NCBI GenBank assembly: GCA_017431625.1
Contig: JAFRKQ010000021.1
Coordinates: 77,324-141,323 of the forward strand
Origin: a bacterium
GTDB lineage: Bacteria > Patescibacteriota > Microgenomatia > UBA1400 > PJMF01
Length of the DNA stretch: 64,000 nucleotides
Reading direction: 5' to 3'
Position 1 is the stretch's first letter. The number at the start of each line of letters is the position of its first letter. Below, piece by piece: positions 8,761 to 43,226 of this stretch. The notes beneath the pieces were generated by a model. It saw only the letters and a program-made list of their open reading frames with translations, ran no database searches and was not told the DNA's origin. The position numbers were made by a program, and so were the translations under genes.

Positions 8761-8767
8761 AGGAATT

Positions 8768-10102: not shown

Positions 10103-10119
10103 GTACCAAATACATTGAT

Positions 10120-10148: not shown

Positions 10149-10155
10149 AAAAACT

Positions 10156-21872: not shown

Positions 21873-24014
21873 ATGCTAGCACTCGTAGCAATGGTGATTG
21901 TGGCCATTCTTATTGTAGCGATTGGTTGGAAAGTGTGGCGTTTACGACCACACAGTCATGATCGCATTTTATTTTTTACCCTGACTTTAATCATCAGCTC
22001 TTGGATGCTTTGCAATTACTTTTCCATGACCACCACTGACCCTGGTGCCTTTTTGCTTTTTGTGCGTTTGGTGATGATTATTACCGATTTGCTACCACCA
22101 GTTTTATTTCTTTTTTCTTTAAGTTTTCCGCGCCAACAAATTCACATGCGCCGACGTCGGCAAATTGCTCTGGCTTGCTGGACGCTTGTAGTCACTGGTC
22201 TGAATTTTACCACCTATGTTTTCCCCAGCTGCTACTGGAAAAATGACAAACTCCTCCCTCAGCCAGGTTGGGGGTTTGTAATTGTGCTGATTAATATGCT
22301 CGTGTTGATTTCTTTGGCTTGTTATAATTTTTTTCAAAAAAGTAAACAGGCTCGAGGCTTGGAAAAAATTCGTCTGACTTACTTTGCATTTTCCTTTAGT
22401 TTGGCGATGGTGATTGCGGTAGTTTTCAATTTAATCCTACCAGCATTATTCCAAAACTCCAGCTTCATGAATATTGGGATTATGTTCATGGGTTTGACTT
22501 TCATTGGTGTTACTGGATATTCTATGCTCAAAACTACTTTTTCCAGTCTGGATTTACTTATTGCCAAGGGGGTGTTTTATTTGGTTTTGCTAGTGTGGCC
22601 CACGCTGCCTCTTGTCGCTCATTATCATTTGCCTGTCAATGATACACCACTACTGGCAGGGATTACTTTTATCTTGTTTTTGGCTTGGATGGGAGCTTTT
22701 GTCTATATCTACAATCACCTTGATAAATTTTTGATCAAAAAAATTGTCAATCATGGTGCCGACTGGCAACACGAAAAACAAAAGTTTTTGACCAGGCTCA
22801 GAGATGAGCTTGATTATGAAACTATCATTACCGAAACACTGAATTTTTTTGCTAAACTCATAAAAAACTCTGGTAATTTAATTGTGGGTGATTTTATGGA
22901 CGAAGATGAAATCAGAGCCTGGGGACAATTGGCACCAGCAGCGCAAAAAATCTATTCACTCGTACGCGGCTTGTGGTTACATAAAAATACTGGCCCTTGG
23001 CTGCTGGAACAAATTGAAACTGATCCTCAATTATCCAAGCTCACGATCGCTATGAAACGCTATGGTATTGCTGCTGTTTTTCCCATTGTGATTTATGACG
23101 AGTATAAAGGCGTATTACTTTTTGGCAATAAGATCAATGGCAACCCTTTTTTTATTCAAGACATTGACTTGATCGAACAAACATTAGATGAGCTCGCGCC
23201 ACTGCTTAATAAAGCCATTATCCACCAAACGACTGAAGACTTCAACACTCACTTGCAACGAAGAATTAATAGTGCCACTAGTCGTCTTAGGCGTATGAAC
23301 CAAAAACTAATTGCCGCCGATAAACTCAAAGATGAATTTGTCTCTGTGGCGAGCCACGAATTGCGCACCCCCATGACCGCCATCAAGGGTTATCTATGGC
23401 TAGTCGCCAAAAATAATACCCCCGAACAACTAGCTACCAATCAAAAATATATTGAAATCGCTCTTAATTCCACCGAAAGACTGATTGCGCTTGTCAATGA
23501 CATGCTGACAATCTCACGCATTGAGGGTGGTCGCTTTGCTCTCAATCTTGATATTATTGACGCTAGACAACTCGTCAGTCAAATCCAAACCGAATTACTG
23601 CCTATTGCCGCTGATAAAAAACTATTTTTTAAGATCAAAAACCCACGCGAAAAAATGCTAATCAAAGCTGATAGCAAAAGAATTTTGGAAGTTTTACACA
23701 ATCTCACCGGCAATGCTCTCAAATTTACTCCCCAAGGAGGGGTAACAATGATCACTCGTGCCGACGACAAATACGTGTATATTGATGTCATTGATACCGG
23801 CGTGGGCATTGATGAGCAAGATTTCAACAAACTCTTTTCTAAGTTTGCTCGGATGGAAAAATCATATGTAAAAATTAAAGAAACTGGCACGGGTCTTGGA
23901 CTTTACATTTCCAGACAGATTATGAAAATGCATCATGGCGATATTACTTTTTCGAGTCGTCGTGACCACGGCAGTACTTTCACAATTTATTTGCCTCGCG
24001 CTCCCCAAAAATAA
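21873..24014 (+). CDS. Sensor histidine kinase with polytopic N-terminal membrane domain
   Basis: About 8 TM helices, HisKA (…SVASHELRTPMTAIKGYL…), HATPase_c (…HNLTGNALKFT…DTGVGI…GTGLGL…). Confidence 0.9.
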   Translation: MLALVAMVIVAILIVAIGWKVWRLRPHSHDRILFFTLTLIISSWMLCNYFSMTTTDPGAFLLFVRLVMIITDLLPPVLFLFSLSFPRQQIHMRRRRQIALACWTLVVTGLNFTTYVFPSCYWKNDKLLPQPGWGFVIVLINMLVLISLACYNFFQKSKQARGLEKIRLTYFAFSFSLAMVIAVVFNLILPALFQNSSFMNIGIMFMGLTFIGVTGYSMLKTTFSSLDLLIAKGVFYLVLLVWPTLPLVAHYHLPVNDTPLLAGITFILFLAWMGAFVYIYNHLDKFLIKKIVNHGADWQHEKQKFLTRLRDELDYETIITETLNFFAKLIKNSGNLIVGDFMDEDEIRAWGQLAPAAQKIYSLVRGLWLHKNTGPWLLEQIETDPQLSKLTIAMKRYGIAAVFPIVIYDEYKGVLLFGNKINGNPFFIQDIDLIEQTLDELAPLLNKAIIHQTTEDFNTHLQRRINSATSRLRRMNQKLIAADKLKDEFVSVASHELRTPMTAIKGYLWLVAKNNTPEQLATNQKYIEIALNSTERLIALVNDMLTISRIEGGRFALNLDIIDARQLVSQIQTELLPIAADKKLFFKIKNPREKMLIKADSKRILEVLHNLTGNALKFTPQGGVTMITRADDKYVYIDVIDTGVGIDEQDFNKLFSKFARMEKSYVKIKETGTGLGLYISRQIMKMHHGDITFSSRRDHGSTFTIYLPRAPQK

Positions 24015-24076: not shown

Positions 24077-24136
24077 TGCGGAGCTTGGTGCGGAGCTCGG
24101 CAGTCTAGTGCGGAGCTCGGTGCACAGCTCGGCACT
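24077..24136. repeat. Repeat element copy A: four 12-bp units (TGCGGAGCT[T/C]GG / TGCACAGCTCGG) with an 8-bp spacer after unit 2, ending CACT
   Basis: Read directly from the sequence. Near-identical organisation recurs at 35680-35739 in the same orientation. Confidence 0.8.
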
Positions 24137-24209
24137 TATTAGTGTTTGGGTAACGTCAACAATTATTTTCCTCTCGCTTTCATCTCTATCTTCGTGTATA
24201 ATCAAGCAC

Positions 24210-25493
24210 ATGACAATGACCAATCATTATTATGCTGGTGGTCTGACCGACCTCAATCCCCATCCCACACCTATTAGTGCTGAATGTTGGCAGCGATGGT
24301 TAAGTCTTGATGAAGCATGGGGAAAAGCTTGGCGCGATTTTTTGCACTGGCCAGCCGCTCAAGAATCATCACCACTTACCCAAATTGTTGGCGACGAGTG
24401 GTTACTCGATATTGCGGCTATCGATACAGCTTTCTGGCAGCACACTGGTTGGCAATTAATTCCCGGAATGACTCTTGACTTGAGTCCACAATTGCAATTT
24501 AATCATCAGCGTTTATTAACCATTCATGGTTGGCAGGCCTACCACTTGGTGGCCAAAACTCGCTCGCGCTGGCGCCATGATCCACCAGCCGCCGTCACTC
24601 AAGCTCAACAAATCATGTCTGGTCTGCCCACCACTGGCACTCCACCAACTGCCGAAAAGGTGATTGTCAGCGATATTCTTCCGCGTCTGATCGCTGTTGA
24701 CTTGATCACTCAATTGATGACCGCGCGCGCCTACCAGCAATTGCCTTATCAACAACACCAATACCTGACCACCTATTTGCGCCAAGAAATTGCCAAAAAA
24801 AATTGGTTTTTTACCTCAATTATTGATTTACTCAAAGTCCGCAATCGTGTCTGGACGCCAGAACAGTACCTACAAGAGTATGGTCATCGGGCTGATCGCG
24901 ATTTTGAACTTACCTGTCCGCGCTGGCACGAGCTGACGGCACAAGAAATTACCACCAAAGCCTCACTCATGGTTACACCCCAGCCCAGCGACGACCTTAA
25001 TCTTGACGCTCTGCACTGGCGCAGCCGCGATAAAAGGGTTGTTATGGCCACCATTGAACTCCACTGGTTGCGCCTCGAAATGCTAAAAAGCCTGAGTCAG
25101 TTTTTTGACCTTTACCGTCAGTGGTGGCTCCAAACAGCACCAGCGGATCTGGAAGTCGTCACTAATTATCAATACCCACCAGCCACTCACATCGACGGGG
25201 CTGGTATCAGTCTTTATCCCGGACAAGTAGAGGGTCGGGTCCTCAATATCGCTCGCCAGCGACCACTACCTCCCGACACCATCGGCATTTTTCCCGATGG
25301 GAGTTTGGAGTTTGCCCCCCTCGTGTCCCAATGTCGAGGACTAATTATTGGTCGAGCCTATTGGCTCTCACCACTAGTTTTACTAGCTCAGCACTATCAA
25401 ATTCCCACCATAAGTGACCGACAAGCCTTGGGACTACCCGTGGGAGCTACCATTGTTGTGGATGCTGATCGCGGTCATTGGCACTTACAATAA
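24210..25493 (+). CDS. Hypothetical protein; C-terminal region resembles a PEP-utilising-enzyme mobile domain without the phospho-His
   Basis: C-terminus …GIFPDGSLEFAPLVSQCRGLIIGRAYWLSPLVLLAQHYQIPTISD…VVDADRGHW. Start corrected to ATG 24210, 7 nt after -10 TATAAT (24197-24202). Track N-terminus overlaps the repeat. Confidence 0.4.
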   Translation: MTMTNHYYAGGLTDLNPHPTPISAECWQRWLSLDEAWGKAWRDFLHWPAAQESSPLTQIVGDEWLLDIAAIDTAFWQHTGWQLIPGMTLDLSPQLQFNHQRLLTIHGWQAYHLVAKTRSRWRHDPPAAVTQAQQIMSGLPTTGTPPTAEKVIVSDILPRLIAVDLITQLMTARAYQQLPYQQHQYLTTYLRQEIAKKNWFFTSIIDLLKVRNRVWTPEQYLQEYGHRADRDFELTCPRWHELTAQEITTKASLMVTPQPSDDLNLDALHWRSRDKRVVMATIELHWLRLEMLKSLSQFFDLYRQWWLQTAPADLEVVTNYQYPPATHIDGAGISLYPGQVEGRVLNIARQRPLPPDTIGIFPDGSLEFAPLVSQCRGLIIGRAYWLSPLVLLAQHYQIPTISDRQALGLPVGATIVVDADRGHWHLQ

Positions 25494-25879
25494 TAAGTAT
25501 TTGTTTGTTCTTTATAATAAGATGTTTTATAAGAAAGTTGCTGGTTGATTATCATGACTCGCACACCCGAGCAATTGCATAAAAAATACTCGCAAAAGAC
25601 GGATTAATAAAAAGTTACAAGTGACTTTTTGTTTTCGTGTGTCACTAAAAACCAGGCTATTTTGTTAAACGTTTGTTTAACACTGTTGATATTTTGTGAA
25701 CATCTTTGCGGCTATCTTACTGATTCACGAGAGCAGTTTTGACGGCTGTATTTTCATCACCGAAAAACTCATTTTTCTTGGTGGCATTTTCTCAATCCAT
25801 GATATAATCAAGTTTGCTCGTCACCAAACTGAGTATTATTAAAAATAGTTGAAAGCTGATTTTTGGTTAATGGAGTTTT

Positions 25880-26587
25880 ATGAGACAAACAAAAAAAGAC
25901 ACACAAGAAACAGTACAAGCACCGGTTTTGACCCGTCACTTAAGTTGTCAAGAACAATTGGATTTTGCCCGTGAGCAATTCGGCAAACTGGTAGATGCGG
26001 GCGCTTTATCAATTGAAAAAGAAGTTTTTGACTTGGCTATTGTTTTGGGTTTCTACGGCGCGATGCCGGCGGCCGCTTGTTCTGGCCACGAACAGAGTGA
26101 GGATGACCCCAAGACGGTAGAATTTCCCTGGGTACGTTTTGAGCCGGCCAAAATTAATAAGTCAGCGCAAAAAAAACTCGAACAAGCCCTGGATAAAATT
26201 GAAGCCCTAGGAGATGATATTTTTGCCGCTGAGTATGCCCTTTTACGTCAAAAATGGCGCCAACATTATCTCCGCGCTCGTGAACCCAATCTCAAATTGT
26301 GTCGCTATTTGTATCAATTGCTTGATGACTTCTATCGGATTCATCATGCCCCCAGCTATGAAGTCCAGCTCACCATCCAAGACATTGACTTAGATGGCTC
26401 GGTATTGCAAAGTATGGGACAAGAAGTTTTTGGCGCTATGAGCAGACGCGAACAACTACGTATGCTCAAACTCTGTCGCGAGGAGTTGCGTGAATTTGGC
26501 AATTTTTTGCAAGAACGTTTTTTGGCTAGTGATGCCGGACGTCAGCAACTCAATAAATATGTAGTCAAAGGACATTTTGAAGCCTAA
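25880..26587 (+). CDS. Hypothetical cytoplasmic protein
   Basis: 235-aa ORF after a 386-bp AT-rich intergenic region. No recognisable motifs. Confidence 0.45.
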   Translation: MRQTKKDTQETVQAPVLTRHLSCQEQLDFAREQFGKLVDAGALSIEKEVFDLAIVLGFYGAMPAAACSGHEQSEDDPKTVEFPWVRFEPAKINKSAQKKLEQALDKIEALGDDIFAAEYALLRQKWRQHYLRAREPNLKLCRYLYQLLDDFYRIHHAPSYEVQLTIQDIDLDGSVLQSMGQEVFGAMSRREQLRMLKLCREELREFGNFLQERFLASDAGRQQLNKYVVKGHFEA

Positions 26588-26657
26588 TGAATGACAAGTC
26601 CCTCGCCAAATTATGAAATCTTATGATATAATATGATAGTTAAAGGAGAAAAGTGAC

Positions 26658-27308
26658 ATGACACAACGACCCGATTTTCGCGCTCACTTAAAAGGAAAGC
26701 CACAGGATATGAACAAAAATAATCCCGCCCCGCAAACCACTGATGATAATCGCTGGCAAGCAGTAACTGCTTTGATTCTGGCAATTCTAGGCATTTATTT
26801 TGTCTGGGTACCAGGACTTAATTTTATCCTGGGACTTTTGGCTTTATTTTTTGGCATCCGTGGTTTGCGCAGTCAAGAAAAAGTCGCTAGTGTCACTGCT
26901 ATCATTGTCAGTGCTTTTAATATTTTTGGTTCCTTACTTGTTATTGGGACGATTGCCATTTTGTTGCGACTTTTTGGCGGGAGTCAAACACCAGCCACCA
27001 ACAAAAATGATGATTACTATCCCCAGTCCGCTATTCATCAGTCATCAGGAAAACTCCTACCAAACAGTGATGAGCAGTCGCTTAATGATCACACCAATCG
27101 TCAATCAACAAGCACTAGCACTTCCAGACATCAAGATAGTGCTTCCGCCAAGACAAACCGTCAGGAAGCAGCGACACAAACTGTTGACGATAACTTAATG
27201 GTCGAGTTTCCACCACAATTTTTGCTGCTCGATCCAGATGAGTGGCAATCAATCATGGAGTCACAGGAGTACACTGTTCCCTTGCAAACTCCACAAGACT
27301 GGCGCTAG
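26658..27308 (+). CDS. Hypothetical membrane protein (2 TM) with long Ser/Thr/Gln-rich tail
   Basis: RBS aaaggag before ATG. TM hairpin ILAILGIYFVWVPGLNFILGLLALFFGI. Confidence 0.5.
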   Translation: MTQRPDFRAHLKGKPQDMNKNNPAPQTTDDNRWQAVTALILAILGIYFVWVPGLNFILGLLALFFGIRGLRSQEKVASVTAIIVSAFNIFGSLLVIGTIAILLRLFGGSQTPATNKNDDYYPQSAIHQSSGKLLPNSDEQSLNDHTNRQSTSTSTSRHQDSASAKTNRQEAATQTVDDNLMVEFPPQFLLLDPDEWQSIMESQEYTVPLQTPQDWR

Positions 27309-27321
27309 GTGGTAACAACAA

Positions 27322-28518
27322 CTAGCAGCGTTGGTGTTTGGTTTGGCGCCACACGAGGTAGATATTGACTATCACCAACAGGCACTCACCGCCGATCATC
27401 GCCCAAACACTGCCATACATACCCAAACTTGGTACTAGCCACCAATTAAGACCAAGATTGGCTAGAGTGGAACCAAGTAAAAAAGGTACATAGCAAGCAA
27501 CTCGATCACCGCTTTGCAAAACAGTGTTTAAAGGAGCATTGAAAAAAAACAAAACCACCACCACGGCCAGCAAACGCAGTATCCCGGCCGCTGGAGCATA
27601 ATCAGCTCCCAGTAAAGTCACTGTCAAAAACTGACTCAGCGTCACCATCGCGACCGCCACCGCTAGACCAGCAGCAGTCATCACTACCACCATCTTGACA
27701 ATTTGCCTCCGGCTCAAACCACCCTTTTTAGCCGCTAGAGGGAAAAGGTTGTGAAAAAGCGCTTGGGGCAAGAGATTGAAAGCATCCAAATAACGATAAG
27801 CCGCCCCATAAAGCCCCAGGGCATAAGTATCCAAAAATGAATTAATAATCAACTGGTCAGCTCGCGAATAGATCACGCCCAGCGAATCAATCGCTGCATA
27901 TGGCCAAGTTGACCAAATATTGGGCCAGTGCTGACAACCCCGGCACCAACTCGTCCACACTGCTCGCCACGGAAAATAAAAAATTATAATTAATGTCCAA
28001 GTCAGCAAGTAACTTTGATAAAAATAATTAATGTCAGCGGGCGTCCTAATCAACCACAAACTTGCAAAAAACAAAAGATTACGGACGATTAATTTATAAC
28101 CCAAATACAAACTCTGCCCGCAAGCCAAATAATAACTATCAGCCACCGTGATCAGACTTTCAAAAAATAAACTCACCCAAAAATAACTGCTCACACCAGC
28201 AGGCAAGGGCGACCACCACCATTGAATCACCATCATCACCAGAATGCTAATAACCGCCAAACTCAAACGCCAAGCTAAAAGTTGGCCCAAAAGTGCCGGT
28301 TGTTTTGAACTCGCCGATTGTTTGAGATACCAATTTTTCAGCCCCACATCAAAAATAGTCGTCACCAATTGCACCAAAGTGGTAAAAAGCATCACCTCAC
28401 CGAAGCGATCAGGCAAAAGCACGCGCGCGAGAATCATGAAATACACCGCCGACAAGAGTTTACCCCCCACCAAAGTCGTAAAATAAATCAATGATTGTTG
28501 TAAAAGTTTACGCAACAT
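27322..28518 (-). CDS. Polysaccharide/oligosaccharide flippase-family (Wzx/MOP-like) membrane protein
   Basis: Polytopic, Wzx-like N-terminus MLRKLLQQSLIYFTTLVGGKLLSAVYFMILARVL. Trp-rich loops. Confidence 0.5.
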   Translation of the reverse strand: MLRKLLQQSLIYFTTLVGGKLLSAVYFMILARVLLPDRFGEVMLFTTLVQLVTTIFDVGLKNWYLKQSASSKQPALLGQLLAWRLSLAVISILVMMVIQWWWSPLPAGVSSYFWVSLFFESLITVADSYYLACGQSLYLGYKLIVRNLLFFASLWLIRTPADINYFYQSYLLTWTLIIIFYFPWRAVWTSWCRGCQHWPNIWSTWPYAAIDSLGVIYSRADQLIINSFLDTYALGLYGAAYRYLDAFNLLPQALFHNLFPLAAKKGGLSRRQIVKMVVVMTAAGLAVAVAMVTLSQFLTVTLLGADYAPAAGILRLLAVVVVLFFFNAPLNTVLQSGDRVACYVPFLLGSTLANLGLNWWLVPSLGMYGSVWAMIGGECLLVIVNIYLVWRQTKHQRC

Positions 28519-29782
28519 ACCGCCCTTGTGAGAGATTTGTCAATCCCAAAACTACCAACAAGACACTCACCACCACGATATTGACCAGCATCACCGCCAA
28601 AGCTGATGTGTGCCAACAAGCAATCCCGACAATTTGAATCACCGGCGCCAGCAAACCAATGAACAAACCCGCACGTTCGCGAGCTAAAAAATTTTGCAAA
28701 GTGAGCATACACAGGCAATAAAGACCACCAAAAATCGCTGCCAACCACAAAATGGGTGCTAAAGCCAAATATTCTTGAGTACCAACATAGACAATTAAAA
28801 ACTCTGGAATGAGACGATAAATCAGACTCATGCCGGCAGTAAATAAAACTATTAATCCCACCGACAACCAATAAATACGTCGCTTCAAAGTCACTGACTC
28901 ATGTGAATTAAAAAACGTAAACGCTACATTAATTAAAGGCTGACTGGCATACACAATGACTTTTGCCAACAGTGAATACAAACCATACTGCCCGGCCAAT
29001 AATGCCGGACACAACATCTTGACTGTGATGACATCGACATTGAGTAAGGCAGTGGTGACCGTGACGGCTGTCAATGTCAGCCACCAATCACGAGCAGTGG
29101 CCAATTGTGACCATAAGTAGGGGAGAGCCCGATTGTTACTCGTCAATGTTTGTCCGCGACGGCACAAACCCCACACATGCAAACCAGTTTGCAACCACAT
29201 AGTCACCCCCAAACTCACATACAAACTCGCCAAACTAGCAGCAAAATGCAAGGCCAGAGCACCACCAAGCAAACGAAACAACATCGACACCACCGACACC
29301 AGTGATAACACCCCAAACCATTGCAAACCGGTAATCTGAGCTGATAAAAACGTGGTCACGCAATTGGCTACCAACAACACTAAAACCAAAATAACTGAGG
29401 TGGGATACAAAAAATTGGCGTGCTGACACAACCACCACACAATGGCCAACAATCCCAGTACTACCAACCACCACCAAGATCTCAAGGTGGCCAAAATGCG
29501 ACTATTGAGACGACACAAATAATCCCGCCGCCCTGACTCAGGACGAGCACTGATTTTTTTAGTGATCAAAAGTGCCACCACTGTCAGCGGCAAACTCAAA
29601 AGAGTAACATAAGACATCACTGATGAGTATTCGCCATAATCGGCTTGAGTCACATTTTGGACTACCAAAAAATTAAACAAAAAAGCCAAAAAACTCGCGA
29701 CTGCATTCCCGATCAAATTAAGCGCACTTTGCCAATAAAAACGCTGGAACTGAGTTGACTGTTTTGCTCTCACAAGACTCAT
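28508..29782 (-). CDS. Polysaccharide flippase-family (Wzx/MOP-like) membrane protein
   Basis: About 12 TM, N-terminus …NLIGNAVASFLAFLFNFLVVQNVTQADYGEY typical of Wzx. Confidence 0.55.
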   Translation of the reverse strand: MSLVRAKQSTQFQRFYWQSALNLIGNAVASFLAFLFNFLVVQNVTQADYGEYSSVMSYVTLLSLPLTVVALLITKKISARPESGRRDYLCRLNSRILATLRSWWWLVVLGLLAIVWWLCQHANFLYPTSVILVLVLLVANCVTTFLSAQITGLQWFGVLSLVSVVSMLFRLLGGALALHFAASLASLYVSLGVTMWLQTGLHVWGLCRRGQTLTSNNRALPYLWSQLATARDWWLTLTAVTVTTALLNVDVITVKMLCPALLAGQYGLYSLLAKVIVYASQPLINVAFTFFNSHESVTLKRRIYWLSVGLIVLFTAGMSLIYRLIPEFLIVYVGTQEYLALAPILWLAAIFGGLYCLCMLTLQNFLARERAGLFIGLLAPVIQIVGIACWHTSALAVMLVNIVVVSVLLVVLGLTNLSQGRYVA

Positions 29783-29794
29783 TATACCACCAAC

Positions 29795-30709
29795 CTATTT
29801 TCCCCACAAATCCAGCGGATAAACCCCTTGTTTGATCAAAGAAGCTATCGCCTCCACCGTGGTGCGTTTGTCCTGTGCATAAGTGACGCCAAACCAATGA
29901 CTCTGCGTGGGCAAAACTTGCATTTGAGCGATTTGGTCTTGAATTAAATGATTCACCACATTGGGCGTAAAAAACTCAAGTTTGTCGTCGTGGCCATGAG
30001 CTTGAATAAATGTACACAAATCTTGCTCTAAATAGTCAAAAAAATCTGGTGTAAAGGCAAAAAGCACCATGGATACTAAACGATTTTTATCAATTAAGTG
30101 ATCAATATTTTGCTTGTCACGACTCACAATTTGCCCCTCAACCCAGCCAATTTTGGTGTGTTCATGGATAGAAGTCAGCCGCATATTGCCATCGGCCATC
30201 AAAAGCCCCCGCGACACCCAACCATTGGGCGACAAAGTGTGAGCCAACTTATAACCTACCACGGCATAATGAGCACGCGAGTCCACCGGCAGACTTTCCA
30301 ACCACTTGGCAGTATCCTTCAAAGCCTCACGACCATAAAAGTCATCCGCACTAATGACTGCAAAAGGCTCGTGGATCAAATCACGAGCCACCCAGACTGC
30401 ATGACCCGTACCCCACGGCTTAGTGCGTGTAGTCTGCAACTGACAGCCAACCGGCAAATCATTCATTTCTTGATTGACAAATTTGATCTCTATATCAGGA
30501 GAAAACTTGTCACCATTAAAATGGCGACAAAATTCAGTGGCAAAATCTGACCGGATCACAAAGACAATCTTGTTAAAACCAGCTTGAATAGCATCATAAA
30601 CTGAATAGTCGATTAAATATTCGCCATTGGGACCAACGCTATCAATTTGCTTGAGTCCGCCATAGCGCGACCCCATACCCGCCGCCATAATCAGAAGTGT
30701 TTTTCTCAT
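29795..30709 (-). CDS. Sugar-phosphate nucleotidyltransferase (NTP_transferase fold)
   Basis: N-terminal MAAGMGSRYGGLKQ nucleotide-binding loop. Exact specificity not determinable. Confidence 0.55.
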   Translation of the reverse strand: MRKTLLIMAAGMGSRYGGLKQIDSVGPNGEYLIDYSVYDAIQAGFNKIVFVIRSDFATEFCRHFNGDKFSPDIEIKFVNQEMNDLPVGCQLQTTRTKPWGTGHAVWVARDLIHEPFAVISADDFYGREALKDTAKWLESLPVDSRAHYAVVGYKLAHTLSPNGWVSRGLLMADGNMRLTSIHEHTKIGWVEGQIVSRDKQNIDHLIDKNRLVSMVLFAFTPDFFDYLEQDLCTFIQAHGHDDKLEFFTPNVVNHLIQDQIAQMQVLPTQSHWFGVTYAQDKRTTVEAIASLIKQGVYPLDLWGK

Positions 30710-31073
30710 ACGCTATATTGTACCATAAACCCATCGTTTTGTATCAAGTAAATGTGAAAGCCAACGGCCTTGTTTTTTTAAAACGCTTATGTTATAATGA
30801 CTATTATGGCAAAAAGCAAAACCACCTCCAAAAAGAAAACTACCCTTGGGACGAAAAAACCGCACTGCCCACTAAACAAAAAACCATTCCTGCTGGTGTG
30901 CTGGTAGTGGTCAGTATTGGCATTATAGTTGTTATTGTGTGGCTTTTGGGCACTTACACTCGCGATTATCTCGATCATGACGCTCAAGTACGTGAGCGCA
31001 AGGCTGCTCTCGAACGAGCTCGTTATTAAATTTGCTCACCGATTTCATCATTAATTGCGGTATAATACCCACT

Positions 31074-31967
31074 ATGCTGCAGTTAAAATCTGGTTTACCG
31101 GTTGTTGACCCAGTGTTCCCTTCGGGGAGTGTAAATATTTGTTTTGCCACTGACCAAAATTACTTACCTTTTTTGGCAGTCACTATTCTCTCACTGCGCG
31201 ATCATGCCGATCCTCACTGCAACTATGATATTTGCATTCTCAATGATGGTCAATTGGACACTAGTCGTTTCCCCTTTGACAAATTGCAAACCGATCACTT
31301 CAAAATTCGCTTCCTCACTATGGACTTAAAAAAATACCCTTATGACTTTAGCACTCACTTGAGTGGCTATTATACCATCGCTACTTATTATCGTTTTTTT
31401 ATTGGTGAAATTTTCCGTCGTTTTGATAAAATTCTTTATCTTGATACCGACATGATTGCTATGAGCGATCCCCAGGAGCTTTTCGCCCTCCCGCTTGACG
31501 ATAAAATTTTTGCTGGTGGTACTGATCGGTGTCATTTTTTACCTATCGAAGACAATTGGCGCTCTTACGTGGCTACTACTCTTGGCATCCCCCTGGCGCA
31601 GTATTTTTGTGCTGGGATTATGCTGATGAATATTGCCAAAATGCGCGCGGCACAACTTTTGATACGCTCACTACAAAAACTTGATGAATTAGGAACACCC
31701 CAGCTAGTTGATCAAGACGTACTCAATAGTCTTTTTGCCGATAAAACGCTAGTCTTACCACCATGCTGGAATGTGATGTGGAGTGTGTTTTTGCAAGGCA
31801 GTAAGCGTGAACAAACTCTTTACAAAAAACAAGCCTTACCCGCCAAAATCATTCATTATGACTCCAAAGTCAAGCCTTGGAACACTCCTAGTGCATATTT
31901 GGCCGACCATTGGTGGTATTACGCTCGCCAGTTGGGACTCACTCCCAAAAAACTGACGTGGGATTAA
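31074..31967 (+). CDS. Family 8 glycosyltransferase (LgtC/RfaJ-like)
   Basis: NICFATDQNY…YLDTDMIA (DxD)…HYDSKVKPW. ATG 31074 lies 7 nt after -10 TATAAT 31061-31066. Track start 31032 is TTG. Confidence 0.75.
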   Translation: MLQLKSGLPVVDPVFPSGSVNICFATDQNYLPFLAVTILSLRDHADPHCNYDICILNDGQLDTSRFPFDKLQTDHFKIRFLTMDLKKYPYDFSTHLSGYYTIATYYRFFIGEIFRRFDKILYLDTDMIAMSDPQELFALPLDDKIFAGGTDRCHFLPIEDNWRSYVATTLGIPLAQYFCAGIMLMNIAKMRAAQLLIRSLQKLDELGTPQLVDQDVLNSLFADKTLVLPPCWNVMWSVFLQGSKREQTLYKKQALPAKIIHYDSKVKPWNTPSAYLADHWWYYARQLGLTPKKLTWD

Positions 31968-31975
31968 ATTGCGAG

Positions 31976-34120
31976 TCATTGATTAGGGGGCACGCTACCA
32001 GGACTCCCCATCAGCTGACGCTGACCGCGATCACCACGTCGAGCCGCGCCGCTTGCTTCCCCAGACCGATTACCACCAAAACCACCGCCGGGATTCATAC
32101 CGCCGCCGCCAAAACCGGTGTTTCCGCCCACACTGATAGCGTCTTGGGTGACAGTTTGCGTTTGCGCGCCCACGCTCACTGTATAAGTCTGACCGACTTG
32201 AAGTTCAGGATGCGAAAAAACGACACTATTACCAGTTTTTTGCACTCTGTACGAGACTAATTCTCTCTGGGAGCTATCACTAATAGTCAAAGTCTGACCA
32301 CTGGTATAATTGGTGGCAAAATTAACTTTAAATGCGGCTTGAGTTGAATTGGCCGAAAAAGTCTCCGCCATGCCCGACGAGCCTAAAGCCAAAATTGTCC
32401 CACCATGAATCACAATATCGCCGCCGCTTTCCGAACCTGAGTCCAAAGCACCATTGCCACTATTAGTGGGCCCGTCAATAATAATATCACCACCATTGAT
32501 AATTAAGTTGCCGTTGGAATCCAAACCATCGCCATCAGCGTGCACTCGTAGTATGCCACCGTCAATTTGCAACCAAGCTAAATCTTCATTACTGACAGTC
32601 ACTGTCTGTCGCCAACCAAAATCCTGGCTCTCACCGTTGCTAGCATTAAAACCATCATCTTGGGTAGTAACATCGTAGTTGCCACCAGTCACATAAATCC
32701 GCGCTCCTTCAACTCCTTCATAGCTAGCAGTCACTTGCAAATCTCCACCTTGTAAATAGACGTTATTGTCAGCATGGACGGCATCATCACCGGTAGTGAG
32801 TGTGATTTGCCCACCGGCCAGAGTGAGATCGCCATCACTATGCAGAGCGTCATCGCGACAATCCAGCACCAGTGTTCCCGCCATAATGGCCATGCTGCTC
32901 CCAGCCTTCAGACATTTGGCTGACGCCTCGCCATCTTCATCGGTATAATTGACATCACGCTGCCTAGTGGCCAAATCTGGCGGCTCAAAACGGGTCTCAT
33001 TAGACAAATTTTGATCAAAATCACTAAAATTTGGCTGTAAATCAATATTTTCCATTGGTGATAAATTACCCCATTCTGGTGGCATCGGCGGTCTGTCGCC
33101 ACTACTAGCCAGCATAGCAGTAAAATTTTCCCAGTTGTCATCTTCTGATGGGGGACTCGCAAAAGCGCGCGCTTGCTTGTCATCGCCAGTGTCAGTAGTC
33201 GCTTCCGGTCTCATCGCCCCCGGGCCAGTTTCTTGATGAGAACTAGCGGCCGCACTGCCACCACCAGTCATGATGGTAAAATGACCACCATTAAGCGTTA
33301 GATCGGTTTCGGCTTGTAAACCATCACCATCAACGTCAAGAGTAAACTGACCATCATTGATGACAATATAACCTTTGTCAGCTTTGGCGATATTATTAGC
33401 TTTAATACCCTCGCCACCACGCAAATCAAATTCACCAGTAGCGATCCGCACCGAGTCTTTGCCCAAAAGAGTGGTGCGAGTGGCCGTGATTTGGTAGTGA
33501 CCACCAGTAATCACCAGATCATCGCTGCTTCTAATCCCATGACCACCGGTCGCCGTCACACTTAGAGAGCCATCGCCATTAAAAGCCAAATCTGCTTTGG
33601 CGTAAATTGCCGCCGTCACGCCCGCGCTACTCGCCTCGGGACTGATTAAATTAGCCGCCACAATACTATTGTGAGTGTCGTCTGGGAGGGTCACAAAAAC
33701 CTTGTCTGCGGCTTTAATCCAGATCGGTGCCAAGGTCTCATGACGCAAATCCACATTGTTAAGTACCAATTGTACTTTGCTATCTTGGGCGTCCACGATT
33801 ACCTGCTGATTGTCCAAACTACCAGATAAAACATAGCTACCGGCGGTCACAATATGAACATCACCATTCAAAACATAAGCCCCGCCATTATGACCCAAAT
33901 TGGTCAAATCATTAAGATCGATTTTGATCGCGCTCGTCTCACTCCATGAACTATCATAATCGCGAGCCGAAAAGCTACCGCCACGATCAGCACCGCCATC
34001 AGAAATAATTTTACTCACACCCAGCCGCTCACTATTGATAAAGATCACTGTTAAAGCTACCGTCGCCGCTACAATGAGACCGCAAATCAAATCTGTATGT
34101 CGATGCAGAGACCAATTCAT
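31976..34120 (-). CDS. Large secreted/anchored protein with parallel beta-helix-like repeats and Gly-rich C-terminus
   Basis: N-terminal signal anchor, recurrent GG/DGDGL/ITGG repeat pattern, C-terminal GGNTGFGGGGMNPGGGFGG. Confidence 0.4.
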   Translation of the reverse strand: MNWSLHRHTDLICGLIVAATVALTVIFINSERLGVSKIISDGGADRGGSFSARDYDSSWSETSAIKIDLNDLTNLGHNGGAYVLNGDVHIVTAGSYVLSGSLDNQQVIVDAQDSKVQLVLNNVDLRHETLAPIWIKAADKVFVTLPDDTHNSIVAANLISPEASSAGVTAAIYAKADLAFNGDGSLSVTATGGHGIRSSDDLVITGGHYQITATRTTLLGKDSVRIATGEFDLRGGEGIKANNIAKADKGYIVINDGQFTLDVDGDGLQAETDLTLNGGHFTIMTGGGSAAASSHQETGPGAMRPEATTDTGDDKQARAFASPPSEDDNWENFTAMLASSGDRPPMPPEWGNLSPMENIDLQPNFSDFDQNLSNETRFEPPDLATRQRDVNYTDEDGEASAKCLKAGSSMAIMAGTLVLDCRDDALHSDGDLTLAGGQITLTTGDDAVHADNNVYLQGGDLQVTASYEGVEGARIYVTGGNYDVTTQDDGFNASNGESQDFGWRQTVTVSNEDLAWLQIDGGILRVHADGDGLDSNGNLIINGGDIIIDGPTNSGNGALDSGSESGGDIVIHGGTILALGSSGMAETFSANSTQAAFKVNFATNYTSGQTLTISDSSQRELVSYRVQKTGNSVVFSHPELQVGQTYTVSVGAQTQTVTQDAISVGGNTGFGGGGMNPGGGFGGNRSGEASGAARRGDRGQRQLMGSPGSVPPNQ

Positions 34121-34128
34121 GAATGCCT

Positions 34129-34797
34129 TTACATGTATTCACCATTAAAACTAACCAATACCGCGCTCGTCACGCCATCCAGCTGACTCAATTCGTTGAC
34201 AAAATCTGTCCGGCCATCATTAAGGCGCAGTTCGTAGGTAAGTTCAAACTTGCCCGCACGAGCCGTTTTACTTTTGAGATTGACCTTGCTTGCTTGGGCT
34301 CGTAAAATTTTATCTGCCATTTGCTCACTTACATCCCCATCACAAGTAATAATGGCCATAAAAGGCTTGGTCTTGGTTTGGCGATTGGCAAAAAGCATGA
34401 TCACCACTCCGATCAGCAAACTACCAAAAACTCCCAGCGGGAACATACCGGCAGCCAGCACAATGCCGACCGCAATTGACCAAAAAAGGAAAGCAATGTC
34501 CAATGGCTCTTTGATTGCTGCCCGAAAACGAACAATTGACAACGCCCCCACCATACCCAAAGAAAGAACAATATTGGAAGTCACGGCCAAAATAATAAGC
34601 GTGGTAATTAGCGATAGGGCAATCAAAGTCACCCCAAAACTGGTGGAATACATAACCCCTTGATAGGTCCGGCGGTACACCCAAAATATAAAAACACCAA
34701 TGCCGAAGGCCAAAAGCATCGCCAGTACCATATCAAACATTGATACCGCGGTGACATTTTCCAAAAAACTCGACTTAAAAATATCACTTAAACTCAT
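34129..34797 (-). CDS. DUF4956-like polytopic membrane protein
   Basis: 4-TM N-terminal half plus soluble C-terminal domain. Sits next to VTC-domain gene, a recurrent pairing. Confidence 0.5.
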   Translation of the reverse strand: MSLSDIFKSSFLENVTAVSMFDMVLAMLLAFGIGVFIFWVYRRTYQGVMYSTSFGVTLIALSLITTLIILAVTSNIVLSLGMVGALSIVRFRAAIKEPLDIAFLFWSIAVGIVLAAGMFPLGVFGSLLIGVVIMLFANRQTKTKPFMAIITCDGDVSEQMADKILRAQASKVNLKSKTARAGKFELTYELRLNDGRTDFVNELSQLDGVTSAVLVSFNGEYM

Positions 34798-34864
34798 TTT
34801 TCCTTTCTCTCTTGCATTTTTTATTCATTGTTTTCATACTATTATTACATATTGCCATCAATTC

Positions 34865-35560
34865 CTAACCAAACACCCGGCAATTGGCGTACTTAGAAAA
34901 TGGTGCTGTTCGTCGCCCCGTCAGTTGTACGACTGCCTTCACTACATCGGGCAAAAAAGTATCCCATTTCACCTCCATCACTGCTGGGTTATCAGGCACG
35001 CTGACCGTAGGTAAATCAGGACTTAAGGCCTCAGTGCTCGTCACCCCCGTACGCAAGTCATAATCCAGAGTCACCCGCACACCACCAGCAGGATAAAAAT
35101 AAGCCTCGCGTTGATAATCCACGATAGTCTTGGGACGCAAACCTTGGGTGAGCATTTTGTAGTAAAGCTCGCGCAACAAATCAAACTCACTGTCAGCCAA
35201 CCACAACCAATCGCCAGCGATTATTTTTTGTGTTTCTTTGCTGGTTAGTGGTGCCATTGTTTTATTGCCAACACTATTCCACTTGTATTTTTTCTCCAAG
35301 CGAATAAATGACAAATCGTGATTGTAATAACGAATGCGAAACTTCTCACGTTTATTAACACCATCAAGTTTTTCGCGCAAAGCTTTATTTTCTGGAGTGT
35401 CAAAATAAAGACTCCTGATAAAATAAAGTCCATCGCCATGCAAAGAGTAGGGGTCAGGAGTCAGCACCGAGCGCAATCGTGTGCGTAAAATCTGCAAATC
35501 CATTTGATTAATGGCAATTTTCCACTCGTAGCGATAATCTCGCAAACCTTCAACACTCAT
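34865..35560 (-). CDS. VTC-domain (CYTH-like / polyphosphate-polymerase-like) protein
   Basis: …DYRYEWKIAINQMDLQILRTRL…LYFIRSLYFDTPEN…KFRIRYY… resembles bacterial VTC domain proteins. Confidence 0.55.
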   Translation of the reverse strand: MSVEGLRDYRYEWKIAINQMDLQILRTRLRSVLTPDPYSLHGDGLYFIRSLYFDTPENKALREKLDGVNKREKFRIRYYNHDLSFIRLEKKYKWNSVGNKTMAPLTSKETQKIIAGDWLWLADSEFDLLRELYYKMLTQGLRPKTIVDYQREAYFYPAGGVRVTLDYDLRTGVTSTEALSPDLPTVSVPDNPAVMEVKWDTFLPDVVKAVVQLTGRRTAPFSKYANCRVFG

Positions 35561-35679
35561 GAGAAGTATTATACCACATCTAGTTTAAAAAATAGTTAAA
35601 ATCCATACTAATTACATTAACTAAAAATCATTTAAGAGTCATTGGTCACCAACCGAAACACTGCCCGCTACCAACTTAG

Positions 35680-35739
35680 TGCGGAGATCTGTGCGTAGCT
35701 CGGCACTAGAGTGCGGAGCTCGGCGCACAGCTCGGCACT
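35680..35739. repeat. Repeat element copy B (same 12-bp unit architecture as 24077-24136, direct orientation)
   Basis: Units TGCGGAGATCTG, TGCGTAGCTCGG, 8-bp spacer, TGCGGAGCTCGG, CGCACAGCTCGG, CACT. Confidence 0.8.
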
Positions 35740-35832
35740 AAAGCGCCAAGCTGTGGCGGACGGCGACTTTCTATCAATACCGAATAAGTGAATTAACTAA
35801 CAAAAAACTGACAATTATCAACAAAAAACATT

Positions 35833-36717
35833 TTATGTGGTCACAAAAGTAGGATAAATTAAACCAGTGGTAATTGCTTGTGGACGCAAGTCTTCAATTT
35901 CTGCCAAACCCACTTTACCCCAATACAAATCACGAATATCATGAGTGGGATCACGCAAATAAGCCGCCACTTGATGATAGCCTTCCCAATAAACCAAATC
36001 CTTGGTAAATCCCCCGGGCTGACTGGTATCGCGAACACCCCGCTTGACGCGCAAACTATTGGTAAAAGCGCGCGCCGGCGATAAACCTAAACGCAAATTT
36101 TGCTGGTACACCGTCTTAAAATCCGCCGTCTGTGCTAAATAAACCAAGGTATAAAGCAAAGCAGCTTGTCGCAGATCGGGATTGTTTTTATCCTTACTAT
36201 TATAAATGGCCAGACCTTCTTCTGTTTTTTTCCAGTATTTTTGACGTTGACGCATCTGTGCGTGCCACGGCTGGTGCTCATCATTGAGTCGACGCAAAAG
36301 ATGGGTTTGGATTTCGTGATTGAGGACACTGACGAATTGCTCTTGACTGACTTTGGCCGGCCACTGGACGCTGAGAGTCAGATCATCGCGCATCATAAAG
36401 CGACTATTTTGCTGGCGACTTTTGACTAAAGTAATGGGTGCCATGCCCAAGCGCACGCACAAATCTCGCAATAAAACTTCCAGCTCAATAAAACTCAAGG
36501 GGTGATCAATCACACTCGTCGCTTTGAGAGAGTGTTGATGCAAATAAGCTTGTGAGTGCTCATACTCCAAGCGGCTAGGAAGGCCATATTTGGTCAAAAC
36601 AGCCAGTGAATAATCTCGAGCATAAACAAACTGAGGATTGTAATCACCCCCACGCTCCCAAAATATTTGCTTTTGTTCGTCTAAATTTAATGGTACCAAA
36701 TTACTAATCAAACTCAC
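35833..36717 (-). CDS. DUF1704-like protein (QEGLA-motif Tyr/Phe carboxypeptidase-like family)
   Basis: …NHEIQTHLLRRLN… and …KKTEEGLAIYNS… (EEGLA variant of the QEGLA motif). Confidence 0.45.
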   Translation of the reverse strand: MSLISNLVPLNLDEQKQIFWERGGDYNPQFVYARDYSLAVLTKYGLPSRLEYEHSQAYLHQHSLKATSVIDHPLSFIELEVLLRDLCVRLGMAPITLVKSRQQNSRFMMRDDLTLSVQWPAKVSQEQFVSVLNHEIQTHLLRRLNDEHQPWHAQMRQRQKYWKKTEEGLAIYNSKDKNNPDLRQAALLYTLVYLAQTADFKTVYQQNLRLGLSPARAFTNSLRVKRGVRDTSQPGGFTKDLVYWEGYHQVAAYLRDPTHDIRDLYWGKVGLAEIEDLRPQAITTGLIYPTFVTT

Positions 36718-36741
36718 CCCAGTATTATACCATATCAGACA

Positions 36742-38373: not shown

Positions 38374-38545
38374 TTGCTCATATTTTACCCCAAAAAATAC
38401 TATTTTGAGAGGCAATTTGCCAACAAGACAAAAAACCTTGGCACACGCGCCAATGTGACCACAGATGTTCACTGCTTGACCCGCAAACATCATTTTGCCT
38501 TAGCAAAATGTGCACATGTGAGGTATAATAAGCAGTATTAACAAT

Positions 38546-38631
38546 GGAAGCATCGCCTAGCGGCTATGGCAACAGTCTTGAAAACTGTCGGGGTTTCCCC
38601 GTCGTGGGTTCGAGTCCCACTGCTTCCGCCA
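38546..38631 (+). tRNA. tRNA-Ser (anticodon TGA), long variable arm, encoded CCA
   Basis: Cloverleaf read manually: acceptor GGAAGCA/TGCTTCC, D-arm GCC…GGC, anticodon stem ACAGT/ACTGT with loop CTTGAAA, 15-nt variable arm, T-arm GTGGG-TTCGAGT-CCCAC, discriminator G + CCA. Confidence 0.9.
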
Positions 38632-38937: not shown

Positions 38938-39238
38938 AGTCGTTTTGTCATTATTTTGACTTTAGTGTTTGTCAGCATCCTTTTTATCCTTTCTGGCGAA
39001 CCAAGTATAAAGTAGTTGTGAGTTTCACAGATGACTTTAAGGAATTAAAGCCATTCAATGAGACAAACGTAATAGTTCTTTGACATCGGGTGGCAAATGG
39101 CAAGCGGGGTTTTCGTTTTTTTCGCCCCGTTAGACATAATCATTAATAATTTCTAACTTTTTGCACCGCAGTTATGCTTTAGTTTGTCTTTGGCATCTTG
39201 TCAGCCAGTCGCCCGATGGTCCAAAGATAGGTGGACAT

Positions 39239-42821: not shown

Positions 42822-43226
42822 ATGCCAAAAACAGCCAAACTAACCACCATCCCCAAACCACAAAAGCAAGCGATTGCTATTGCCATGAGAAGTGAAGGGG
42901 TGAGTTTACGCCAAATTGGCAAGACTCTAGGCGTTGACCACGTCACGGTGAAAAACTGGACCAGCAAAGAAGCAGTGGGTAATCGTCTGGCAATTGTGGC
43001 AGCATCTTATCAAGAGGAATTGGCCGAGCGTAACAAAGGACTTTTGGATTTGGCGCTCACGAGACTTGAGGAACTGATACCAAAATCTGAATCAATCAGT
43101 GAAGTGCTTAAAGCGGCTGAGTTTGCTCGGGGCAAACCAGAGCAACAAGCTGGTAATAATGTACAAGTGAATGTGACCGGGTTTGCACCAGCGGCCAAAA
43201 TAAAGGATCAATATGGGGAGTTTTAA
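42822..43226 (+). CDS. Terminase small subunit-like HTH protein
   Basis: HTH (GVSLRQIGKTLGVDHVTVKNW) and position directly upstream of, and overlapping, the large terminase. Start uncertain (track 42774 is TTG). Confidence 0.45.
   Translation: MPKTAKLTTIPKPQKQAIAIAMRSEGVSLRQIGKTLGVDHVTVKNWTSKEAVGNRLAIVAASYQEELAERNKGLLDLALTRLEELIPKSESISEVLKAAEFARGKPEQQAGNNVQVNVTGFAPAAKIKDQYGEF

Follow-up and report, generated by a model that had tools for sequence, protein, structure and literature searches.

REP and BIME elements and REPINs are known from Enterobacteria and Pseudomonas (Bertels & Rainey 2011, PMC3116915; PMC3337134). Like the repeat described here, they are short, GC-rich imperfect palindromes that are strictly extragenic, often following a gene's 3' end and separating co-directional genes. 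Adjacent copies cluster in direct and inverted orientation, and a pair can form a long hairpin whose stem mismatches give it polarity. In CPR/Microgenomates, our literature search found one incidental co-mention of REPs and otherwise no paper linking the two. We came to the present repeat through a 64-kb stretch of bacterial DNA (the window, by which we mean the whole stretch), where it occurs at two loci, A and B, on either side of a set of envelope genes. With a probability of about 0.5, we read A and B as two copies of a short, palindromic and GC-rich intergenic repeat that belongs to the REP/BIME type.

Anatomy of the repeat

Copy A (24077..24136) is built from four 12-bp units, two on each side of an 8-bp spacer, followed by CACT: TGCGGAGCTTGG TGCGGAGCTCGG CAGTCTAG TGCGGAGCTCGG TGCACAGCTCGG CACT. 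Copy B (35680..35739) has the same layout and orientation, neither copy being assigned a strand, and reads TGCGGAGATCTG TGCGTAGCTCGG CACTAGAG TGCGGAGCTCGG CGCACAGCTCGG CACT. Coordinates and architecture are exactly as an earlier, sequence-only reading of the window had described them; that reading did not mention the quasi-palindromic nature of the units or a fifth, inverted unit at B. The copies agree at 52 of 60 positions (87%), lie 11603 bp apart and emerged from a repeat search as a single 60-nt direct family. Searching the A-masked window with copy A by blastn recovered copy B at E = 1.1e-11. The longest stretches of uninterrupted identity measure just 14 and 15 bp; the likeness ends at 60 bp, beyond which the flanks are unalignable. 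TRF assigned copy B a period of 32 with 2.0 copies.

The GC-rich element is better described as two tandem imperfect palindromes of ~30 bp, in each of which 11-bp inverted arms enclose an 8-bp spacer. Repetition of a quasi-palindromic core, GAGCTC with GTGC/GCAC on its flanks, accounts for the apparent 12-bp direct units; positions G2, C3, G7, T9 and G12 of the unit are invariant in all nine unit versions. Conservation is greatest in the second half-module, which spans 24107..24136 in A (AGTGCGGAGCT-CGGTGCAC-AGCTCGGCACT, with 10 of 11 arm positions complementary) and 35710..35739 in B (AGTGCGGAGCT-CGGCGCAC-AGCTCGGCACT). The two are identical at 29 of 30 positions, the exception being a single T/C difference in the spacer. 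The inverted fifth unit at B (35743..35755; GCGCCAAGCTGTG, reverse complement CACAGCTTGGCGC) gives this locus a BIME-like mix of orientations. It was picked up by nhmmer as a minus-strand match at 35753-35710 (E 0.004) and, in the minus-strand fold, forms a 13-bp stem with unit 4. The termini AGTGC...GCACT are present in B and degenerate in A (TTTGC), and the flanks contain no target-site duplication (GAGTT before and TATTA after A; CTTAG before and AAAGC after B).

Within the window there are no further copies: every 12-mer match with two or fewer mismatches falls inside A or B, and nhmmer searches with profiles for the entire element and for a 32-nt half module found nothing outside these loci. 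The element thus occupies two of the 23 intergenic gaps of at least 50 bp. None was seen in 59 kb of DNA from relatives. Genome and metagenome DNA collections, which do not include the host organism, yielded 76 exact matches, all single and in DNA of 53-79% GC. Neither copy matches an Rfam family; only tRNAs in the window pass the gathering threshold, and the best sub-threshold match at either element (E 0.13) is to an unrelated family.

Position, folding and variation

Both copies are extragenic and sit between co-directional genes ('++' at A, '--' at B), where the neighbouring ORFs are 195 and 272 bp apart. Copy A begins 63 nt past the stop codon of a 7TM histidine kinase gene (21873..24014, plus strand; HisKA_7TM, HisKA and HATPase_c domains), the last gene of a transcription unit that ends just before A; the kinase gene has a TTGACA-17-TATAAT promoter of its own. 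Homologues of the kinase come from CPR/Microgenomates, and the host is an uncultured rumen bacterium. Copy A ends 74 nt before the ATG at 24210 of a gene for a 427-aa protein, which has a leaderless-type promoter: a plus-strand TATAAT box (24197..24202) 7 nt before the ATG; the sequence at 17-bp spacing, TCGCTT, is not recognisable as a -35 box. Copy B lies 94 nt past the stop of a minus-strand MATCAP/QEGLA-like gene (35833..36717), whose 3' end precedes it, and 120 nt before the start of a minus-strand VTC-domain gene (34865..35560), the first of a VTC-DUF4956-Cthe_2159 unit downstream of B. Here too a TATAAT (35568-35573) stands 7 nt before the ATG, so that each copy is upstream of a TATAAT-N7-ATG promoter. 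Relative to transcription A and B are oppositely oriented, which is tolerated by a quasi-palindrome. A tRNA-Ser gene and a prophage are found 2.8 kb to the right of B.

Because the units are quasi-palindromic, each copy is predicted to fold into a single long interrupted hairpin on either strand, with a stem of ~21-26 bp containing internal mismatches (z -4.2 to -6.2; none of 200 shuffles was equally stable). The predicted stability is -41.8 kcal/mol for A as RNA (z -5.5) and -19 kcal/mol as DNA (z -4.4), and -45.8 kcal/mol for B as RNA and -31.1 kcal/mol as DNA (z -6.2). Ranked among the 25,574 70-nt windows, B comes first (-42.9 kcal/mol) and A second (-37.7 kcal/mol); the mean is -12.5 (sd 4.8). 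Another strong hairpin, at 62711-62780, is of unrelated sequence. Unit 1 of B departs from the 12-mer consensus (GATCTG), but its CTGTGCG is thereby exactly complementary to CGCACAG in unit 4. The change improves pairing, and it is therefore the palindrome that has been kept, not the unit.

Around A we could compare four other, independent assemblies of the same species (L001, L084, L085 and L086), so that the element is seen to persist in five. Copy A is identical in L001, L085 and L086; in L084 three bases differ, all three at unpaired positions of the hairpin, and the fold is equally stable (-41.0 vs -38.6 kcal/mol). Taking A, its L084 variant and B together, three of 11 variable columns are paired, compared with 42 of 58 columns overall (hypergeometric p 0.0007, on few events); when adjacent changes are merged as one event the count is three of eight (p 0.04, again on few events). 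No compensatory base-pair changes were seen among the three distinct sequences.

How might such an element work? In the REP/BIME-type reading, each copy would consist of two ~30-bp imperfect palindromes in tandem (AGTGCgGAGCT-N8-AGCTCgGCACT), occupying the spacer between co-directional transcription units; a stop codon precedes it, and the leaderless-type promoter belonging to the next gene follows. A transcript of either strand could fold into the long interrupted hairpin in vivo, as could the DNA itself by extrusion. The element would most likely act on the 3' end of the preceding transcript, as a terminator, a block to 3' exonucleases or an insulator of the next promoter. Alternatively, it may have no host function and persist as a selfish or neutral repeat. 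Further copies would be expected elsewhere in the genome, and the bracketing of envelope genes by two copies in the same orientation would be incidental. If this is indeed a REP-like family, it adds modestly to the record of palindromic intergenic repeats, in an uncultured lineage with reduced genomes for which they are hardly described, and provides a marker for transcription-unit boundaries in an organism with many leaderless promoters. The element by itself reveals no new mechanism.

The bracketed genes and other explanations

The sequence-only reading saw the bracketed segment as variable surface-glycan cargo, and much of its gene list stands: a MOP/Wzx-type flippase, an NTP_transferase, a GT8 protein, a Cthe_2159 protein, a DUF4956 protein and a VTC protein. 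What it took for a second flippase (28508-29782) is a polytopic membrane protein that matches no family. The first gene inside the bracket encodes the 427-aa protein (24210..25493, plus strand), which had been called PEP-domain-like; it has no Pfam or NCBIfam match, and its sole domain signal is a weak precomputed match to Rph_4th. It belongs to a small family: a word-indexed search returned only the protein itself, hence no close orthologue of the gene outside the species, and an exhaustive search 86 remote representatives. The other bracketed genes (25880..34797) comprise two unknowns, the MOP flippase, the polytopic membrane protein, the NTP-transferase, the GT8 protein, the Cthe_2159 protein and the DUF4956 protein, and the bracketed genes are in mixed orientation.

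Could the units be arrays of binding sites? On this account four 12-bp sites with a GAGCTC core would recruit a DNA-binding regulator, as an upstream activating or repressing sequence co-regulating the 427-aa gene (at A) and the VTC-DUF4956-Cthe_2159 unit (at B). We think this unlikely, though it is the most plausible of the rivals. Each copy does stand upstream of a gene with its own TATAAT-N7-ATG promoter, the one after A could need an activator because it has no recognisable -35 box, five unit positions are invariant and a histidine kinase gene lies immediately upstream of A. Against this, the element spans -74 to -133 relative to one start and -120 to -179 relative to the other, in opposite orientations, and the centre-to-centre spacing of 12, 20 and 12 bp would probably place the units out of helical phase. 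The window genes scanned include no response regulator, and the divergence of unit 1 in B favours the palindrome over the unit consensus. In a relative, GCA_045541795.1 (L080; 65% identity), the TATAAT-N7-ATG promoter upstream of the VTC orthologue (71% identity) is kept, but the 90-bp gap contains no array, so the sites are not conserved ahead of an orthologous target. Of the three readings originally offered, this one is weakened, whereas the REP-like one fits the anatomy best, with its imperfect palindrome, extragenic position, tandem and inverted units and variation at unpaired positions, albeit seen at two loci in 64 kb.

The third, that the repeats mark island boundaries or recombination sites, finds no support. 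In its site-specific form the 30-bp modules would be core sites for a tyrosine-type recombinase, loxP/FRT-like, and their direct orientation would let the 11.6-kb envelope segment be excised as a circle, giving on/off variation. The geometry invites the idea: AGTGCGGAGCT / 8 bp / AGCTCGGCACT occurs in both copies, with nearly complementary arms, an asymmetric spacer and surface-glycan-type genes in between. Assemblies are also fragmented inside the bracket (metagenomic contigs of the species are 2.3-3.9 kb there vs 11 kb to the left), a hint of strain heterogeneity. Exchange by tyrosine recombinases is normally blocked by spacer heterology, and here the 8-bp spacers differ, CGGTGCAC vs CGGCGCAC. 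Among the ORFs scanned in the bracket and the window, adjacent prophage included, no integrase, recombinase or transposase was detected. All four other assemblies read straight through A, from kinase to 427-aa gene, with no junction there, and the points at which their contigs end lie not at A but in a cluster 1.2-1.6 kb to its right. We therefore regard excision by such a recombinase as improbable, and the identical runs of 14 and 15 bp argue against RecA-driven deletion. That the enzyme is encoded elsewhere, so that the conserved modules are loxP-like targets and the surface-glycan/VTC locus is reversibly excised or deleted, seems a shade less probable still. If true, a CPR-like rumen bacterium would switch an envelope locus on and off in a programmed way, and this is the sole reading that would be of wider interest. 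Least probable of all, and very much so, is that an 11.5-kb island arrived whole by horizontal transfer and that the repeats are its attL/attR-like scars. Direct repeats do surround accessory-looking cargo, Cthe_2159 is matched best, outside the lineage, by Lachnospiraceae proteins (~40% identity), and the tRNA-Ser gene and prophage are close by. But the repeats, only 87% identical, are unrelated to the tRNA, and the bracket does not deviate from core genes in GC (0.453 vs 0.453) or GC3 (0.442 vs 0.445); its small codon-distance excess is confounded by gene length and by a reference built from the core genes themselves. The relative carries just four of the ten bracket genes, GT8, VTC, DUF4956 and Cthe_2159 (58-88% identity), on another contig, in another context and gene order and without the element; therefore the segment did not travel as a unit.

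Comparison with known systems

Several families of small DNA elements resemble A and B in part. Intrinsic (Rho-independent) terminators share the GC-rich stem-loop, here 63-94 nt past a stop codon and followed by the next promoter. A terminator-like flag covers 24119-24136 in A, followed by a T-rich tail, TATTAGTGTT. The usual terminator stem is, however, much shorter than the element's, and one 60-bp sequence here serves two unrelated sites. Copy B is not a canonical intrinsic terminator because the transcribed strand has no U-tract, the next letters on the minus strand being CTAAGTTGG. With loxP, FRT and dif core sites the element has in common 11-bp inverted arms, an asymmetric spacer in the 6-8-bp range and two direct sites around a DNA segment; unlike them, each site is tandemly duplicated, and the four other assemblies show no junction variants.

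MITEs (Correia/NEMIS, RUP, BOX, ERIC) are likewise small non-coding intergenic repeats with terminal inverted symmetry and possible promoter or terminator activity. They are longer, at ~100-150 bp or more, and have both defined terminal inverted repeats and target-site duplications, whereas our element is 60 bp long, has degenerate termini in A and lacks a duplication. Integron attC sites are imperfect palindromes of ~60 bp with extrahelical bases, located between genes as A and B are; here there are no RYYYAAC/GTTRRRY core sites and no IntI gene, and just two sites amid genes of mixed orientation.

The REP/BIME/REPIN systems come closest, with differences of their own. REP families number tens to hundreds of copies per genome, against two loci in 64 kb here. 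They are accompanied by a RAYT (REP-associated tyrosine transposase; Y1_Tnp) gene flanked by REPs, and no such gene was found among the window ORFs scanned. The modules of a REPIN are inverted by definition; ours are tandem and direct, and reach the long hairpin only through being quasi-palindromic themselves. On balance, A and B look like ordinary intergenic palindromic elements of the REP-like kind, not the borders of a mobile island.

The repeat and its palindromic core

The sequence-only reading had described two copies of a 60-bp element, and the sequence bears out both their coordinates and their layout. Copy A, at 24077-24136, reads TGCGGAGCTTGG TGCGGAGCTCGG CAGTCTAG TGCGGAGCTCGG TGCACAGCTCGG CACT. 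Copy B, at 35680-35739, reads TGCGGAGATCTG TGCGTAGCTCGG CACTAGAG TGCGGAGCTCGG CGCACAGCTCGG CACT. A repeat search of the window returned them as a single family of 60-nt direct repeats, 52 of 60 positions identical (87%) and 11,603 bp apart, and blastn with A as query, A itself being masked in the window, found B at E = 1.1e-11. Similarity is confined to the element and does not extend into its flanks. The repeat is real and far from chance. Outside A and B the window holds no match to the 12-mer at two or fewer mismatches, nor did nhmmer bring up any further full or half copy there, whether the profile was made from the element as a whole or from its four 32-nt halves.

Tandem Repeats Finder resolves B into 2.0 copies of a 32-bp unit, and alignment of the four halves of the two copies gives AGTGCGGAGCTCGG-Y-GCACAGCTCGGCACT-nn. 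As an imperfect palindrome, each half has 11-bp arms (AGTGCgGAGCT and AGCTCgGCACT) separated by an 8-bp spacer and complementary at 10 of 11 positions, the exception being a single G.G mismatch. A and B are nearly the same in their second halves (29/30 identical) and much less similar in their first. The quasi-palindromic core means that the tandem pair is predicted to fold on either strand into a single long interrupted hairpin. The predicted RNA energies for the two strands are -41.8 and -29.6 kcal/mol in A, and -45.8 and -45.6 kcal/mol in B; as DNA, A comes to -19 kcal/mol and B to -31.1 (plus strand) and -25.1 kcal/mol (minus strand). Fold z-scores run from -4.2 to -6.2, with none of 200 shuffles equally stable. 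Among 25,574 sliding 70-nt windows covering both strands of the whole stretch (mean -12.5 kcal/mol, sd 4.8), B ranks first (-42.9 kcal/mol) and A second (-37.7 kcal/mol). At 35743-35755 B carries a further unit, in inverted orientation, which is predicted to pair with unit 4 on the minus strand. Unit 1 of B strays from the 12-mer consensus (GATCTG), and CTGTGCG thereby becomes the exact complement of CGCACAG in unit 4. It is therefore the palindrome, rather than the direct unit, that appears to be the conserved feature.

L084, another assembly of the species, shows 14 differences from the window over 2,951 positions, and three of these fall in unit 4 of A, at 24124, 24125 and 24131, where TGCACAGCTCGG becomes TGCGGAGCTCAG (L084:1330-1337, equivalent to 24124-24131). 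In the predicted hairpin all three sit where bases are unpaired, and its predicted stability is kept (-41.0 versus -38.6 kcal/mol). Across A, L084 and B, 3 of the 11 variable columns are paired, against 42 of 58 overall (hypergeometric p = 0.0007); with adjacent changes merged the count is 3 of 8 (p = 0.04). Compensatory base-pair changes are absent from the folded alignment, and with only three distinct sequences none would be expected. This avoidance of paired columns lends modest support to constraint on the hairpin. The three unit-4 changes lie within 8 nt while the rest of the 250-nt region is identical, a cluster suggestive of conversion, with a neighbouring unit or another copy of the element as the donor. 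L084 has five more differences clustered at 25449-25469.

Other strong hairpins occur here too. Third in stability within the window is a hairpin at 62711-62780 (-37.2 kcal/mol), TCTGGCCCAAG-GGAA-CTTGGGCCAGA, which stands between two prophage genes and is unrelated in sequence to A and B. In a relative's genome a hairpin, (GGGAGT)GTTTCGGGATTTTTGGGC-loop-GCCCAAAAATCCCGAAAC, with an 18-bp uninterrupted core stem and 24 pairs in total, lies between convergent genes (L027:1493-1550). It too is unrelated in sequence to A and B, so long intergenic hairpins do occur in the lineage, with differing sequences.

The neighbourhood of the two copies

The source of the window is a MAG of an uncultured 'bacterium' obtained in a ruminant-gut study (151-kb contig; proteins MBQ6449965.1/66.1/74.1), and the homologues of its kinase belong to Gottesmanbacteria, Microgenomates and CPR3. 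The first 38.5 kb are chromosomal, with DnaE, GatA/B, RuvC, AcrB, LexA and FemAB. Both copies lie in spacers separating consecutive co-directional transcription units. A 7TM histidine kinase gene has its stop codon 63 nt before A, and 74 nt after A comes the ATG at 24210, where the gene for a 427-aa protein of unknown family starts. B is 94 nt past the stop codon of a MATCAP/QEGLA-like gene and 120 nt ahead of the start of a VTC-DUF4956-Cthe_2159 unit, both on the minus strand. Relative to transcription, A and B have opposite orientations. In both downstream genes TATAAT stands exactly 7 nt ahead of the ATG; each therefore has a leaderless-type promoter of its own. The arrangement is common in the window: TATAAT, or a one-mismatch form, ends 6-8 nt before the start codon of many first genes of transcription units (5690, 17789, 21873, 24210, 30709(-), 35560(-), 36717(-) and 45993, for example). 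These first genes have no Shine-Dalgarno sequence, and internal genes carry GAAAGG-type ribosome-binding sites. Together, the position of TATAAT and the missing Shine-Dalgarno sequence suggest leaderless mRNAs.

The 427-aa protein (24210-25493) matches nothing in the Pfam or NCBIfam libraries, apart from a weak precomputed match to PF27448 (Rph_4th), and a word-indexed search gave no homologues outside the species. Exhaustive search brought in 86 distant representatives of about 430 aa at 22-32% identity; the protein belongs to a small uncharacterised family. On the other side of B, at 35833-38493 on the minus strand, the MATCAP/QEGLA-motif (DUF1704-like) protein is paired with a 583-aa Schlafen AlbA_2-domain protein. 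The two adjoin the prophage junction and may be defence- or stress-related.

Beyond them is a tRNA-Ser gene (38546-38631), beside which a prophage or phage remnant begins and continues past the end of the window (38546-64000), with prophage sequence taking up 39-64 kb. It includes a DnaD-like replication initiator (39161-40129), terminase pieces (43213-44001 and 44833-45480), an SU10-like adaptor (45993-46640), a tail-fibre repeat protein (50908-52020), a SocA/Panacea antitoxin (53450-53908), a tRNA Gln/Trp/Met cluster (54.4-54.6 kb), a holin with a CHAP lysin (54671-56103, minus strand), a tail protein (56114-57346, minus strand) and a capsid-like protein (61778-62716). No integrase was recognised in this region. 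In the prophage the repeat search also picked out a promoter-like sequence of 30 nt, GGCTTGACAAAAT...AACTATAA, which is present four times (45955-45984, 48640-48669, 57958-57987 and 60643-60672), with a 2685-bp spacing occurring twice. An inverted back-to-back pair of it at 57919-57991 looks like divergent promoters.

The bracketed envelope genes

If the repeats were the boundaries of an island, as had been proposed, the genes between them might be expected to stand apart in composition. The ten bracketed genes have the GC content of the core genes (0.453 vs 0.453, p = 1.0) and the same GC3 (0.442 vs 0.445, p = 0.90). Their codon distance is slightly higher (p = 0.04), a small excess confounded by gene length and by a reference built from the core genes themselves; a PPIase gene was counted with the phage genes, which did not materially change the comparison of core and bracket. 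Neither the bracketed proteins nor the other window proteins scanned include a recombinase or transposase.

The nearest kinase homologues outside the species (65-66% identity) have rearranged neighbourhoods without the element and are uninformative on strain-level presence or absence. L080, a relative at 65% identity (GCA_045541795.1), keeps GT8 (58% identity), VTC (71%), DUF4956 (88%) and Cthe_2159 (63%) together on contig JAZQJV010000017.1 at 7612-11767, corresponding to 31032-35560 of the window. Only these four genes are shared, on another contig, in a different order and beside UvrD/GT2/GtrA. The right third of the supposed island therefore represents a module conserved in the lineage, and the 11.5-kb segment did not travel as a whole. 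Upstream of the L080 VTC gene the element is absent and the TATAAT-N7-ATG promoter is retained. The best Cthe_2159 matches outside the lineage are from Lachnospiraceae, at about 40% identity, which hints at exchange with gut Firmicutes.

Five independent metagenome assemblies of the species were compared. In L001, L084, L085 and L086 (99.5-100% identity) the kinase gene, A and the 427-aa gene follow one another uninterrupted, and conspecific contigs end at 25374, 25513 (twice) and 25744, 1.2-1.6 kb to the right of A; any strain heterogeneity is therefore inside the bracket and not at A. Another conspecific contig covers only 30,941-34,812; to the left of these breaks, in contrast, the sequence comes together in an 11-kb contig. 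Such breaks may reflect strain-variable segments within the envelope locus, with breakpoints away from the repeats. With ordinary composition, no mobility gene among the window proteins scanned, read-through at A and non-identical copies, the idea of island boundaries finds no support.

What kind of repeat

Searches of public collections, in sequence from organisms other than the window's own, found the shared 21-mer GGAGCTCGGNGCACAGCTCGG at 25 loci in genome contigs and 37 in metagenome contigs, and a relaxed form of it at 14 loci in viral contigs. All 76 are lone matches in DNA of 53-79% GC, none with the multi-unit layout or neighbouring units, and are chance or coding (ELGAQLG-type) matches. 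Rfam gave nothing relevant to A or B at the gathering threshold or at E<=10, and a literature search with the unit sequence yielded cloning primers only. Three familiar classes drop out as well: integron attC sites (core sites absent), MITEs (target-site duplication absent) and iterons (rep gene absent). Extended arms drawn from flank motifs (CCAAACACT/AGTGTTTGG around A and CCGAAACACT to the left of B) were also rejected, these motifs being common in A-rich sequence and unpaired at B.

We put the probability that A and B are REP/BIME-like hairpins at about 0.5. At the boundary between transcription units a hairpin of this kind would serve as terminator, 3' stabiliser or insulator, or else it might be a selfish or neutral repeat that does no more than persist; the bracketing of envelope genes would then be incidental. 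An array of regulator-binding sites is a good deal less probable, given that A and B differ in their distance and orientation to genes and that the element is absent at the VTC orthologue in L080. Recombination sites of the loxP kind would share the arm-spacer-arm geometry, but the two spacers differ by one base, no recombinase is among the window proteins scanned and no junction variants were seen, the four other assemblies reading straight through A; we consider them improbable. Slimmer still is the chance that the copies are att scars of an acquired island, against which stand the ordinary composition, the non-identical repeats, the absence of an integrase from the window proteins scanned and the L080 comparison. 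What these four readings leave of the probability goes to readings we did not consider.

The hairpin reading takes its measure from REP and BIME elements as defined in PMC3116915 and PMC3337134. A and B do not qualify as a proven REP family, because the copy number is that seen in the window only, no RAYT was found among the window proteins scanned, and the modules are tandem where those of a REPIN are inverted. The likeness to the elements of PMC3116915 and PMC3337134 is fourfold: A and B are GC-rich imperfect palindromes, they are extragenic and lie past the 3' ends of genes, adjacent copies occur in mixed orientation, and mismatches in the stem give the element a polarity. Most likely, then, A and B are an ordinary palindromic intergenic repeat of the REP/BIME type of architecture, in an unusual host.
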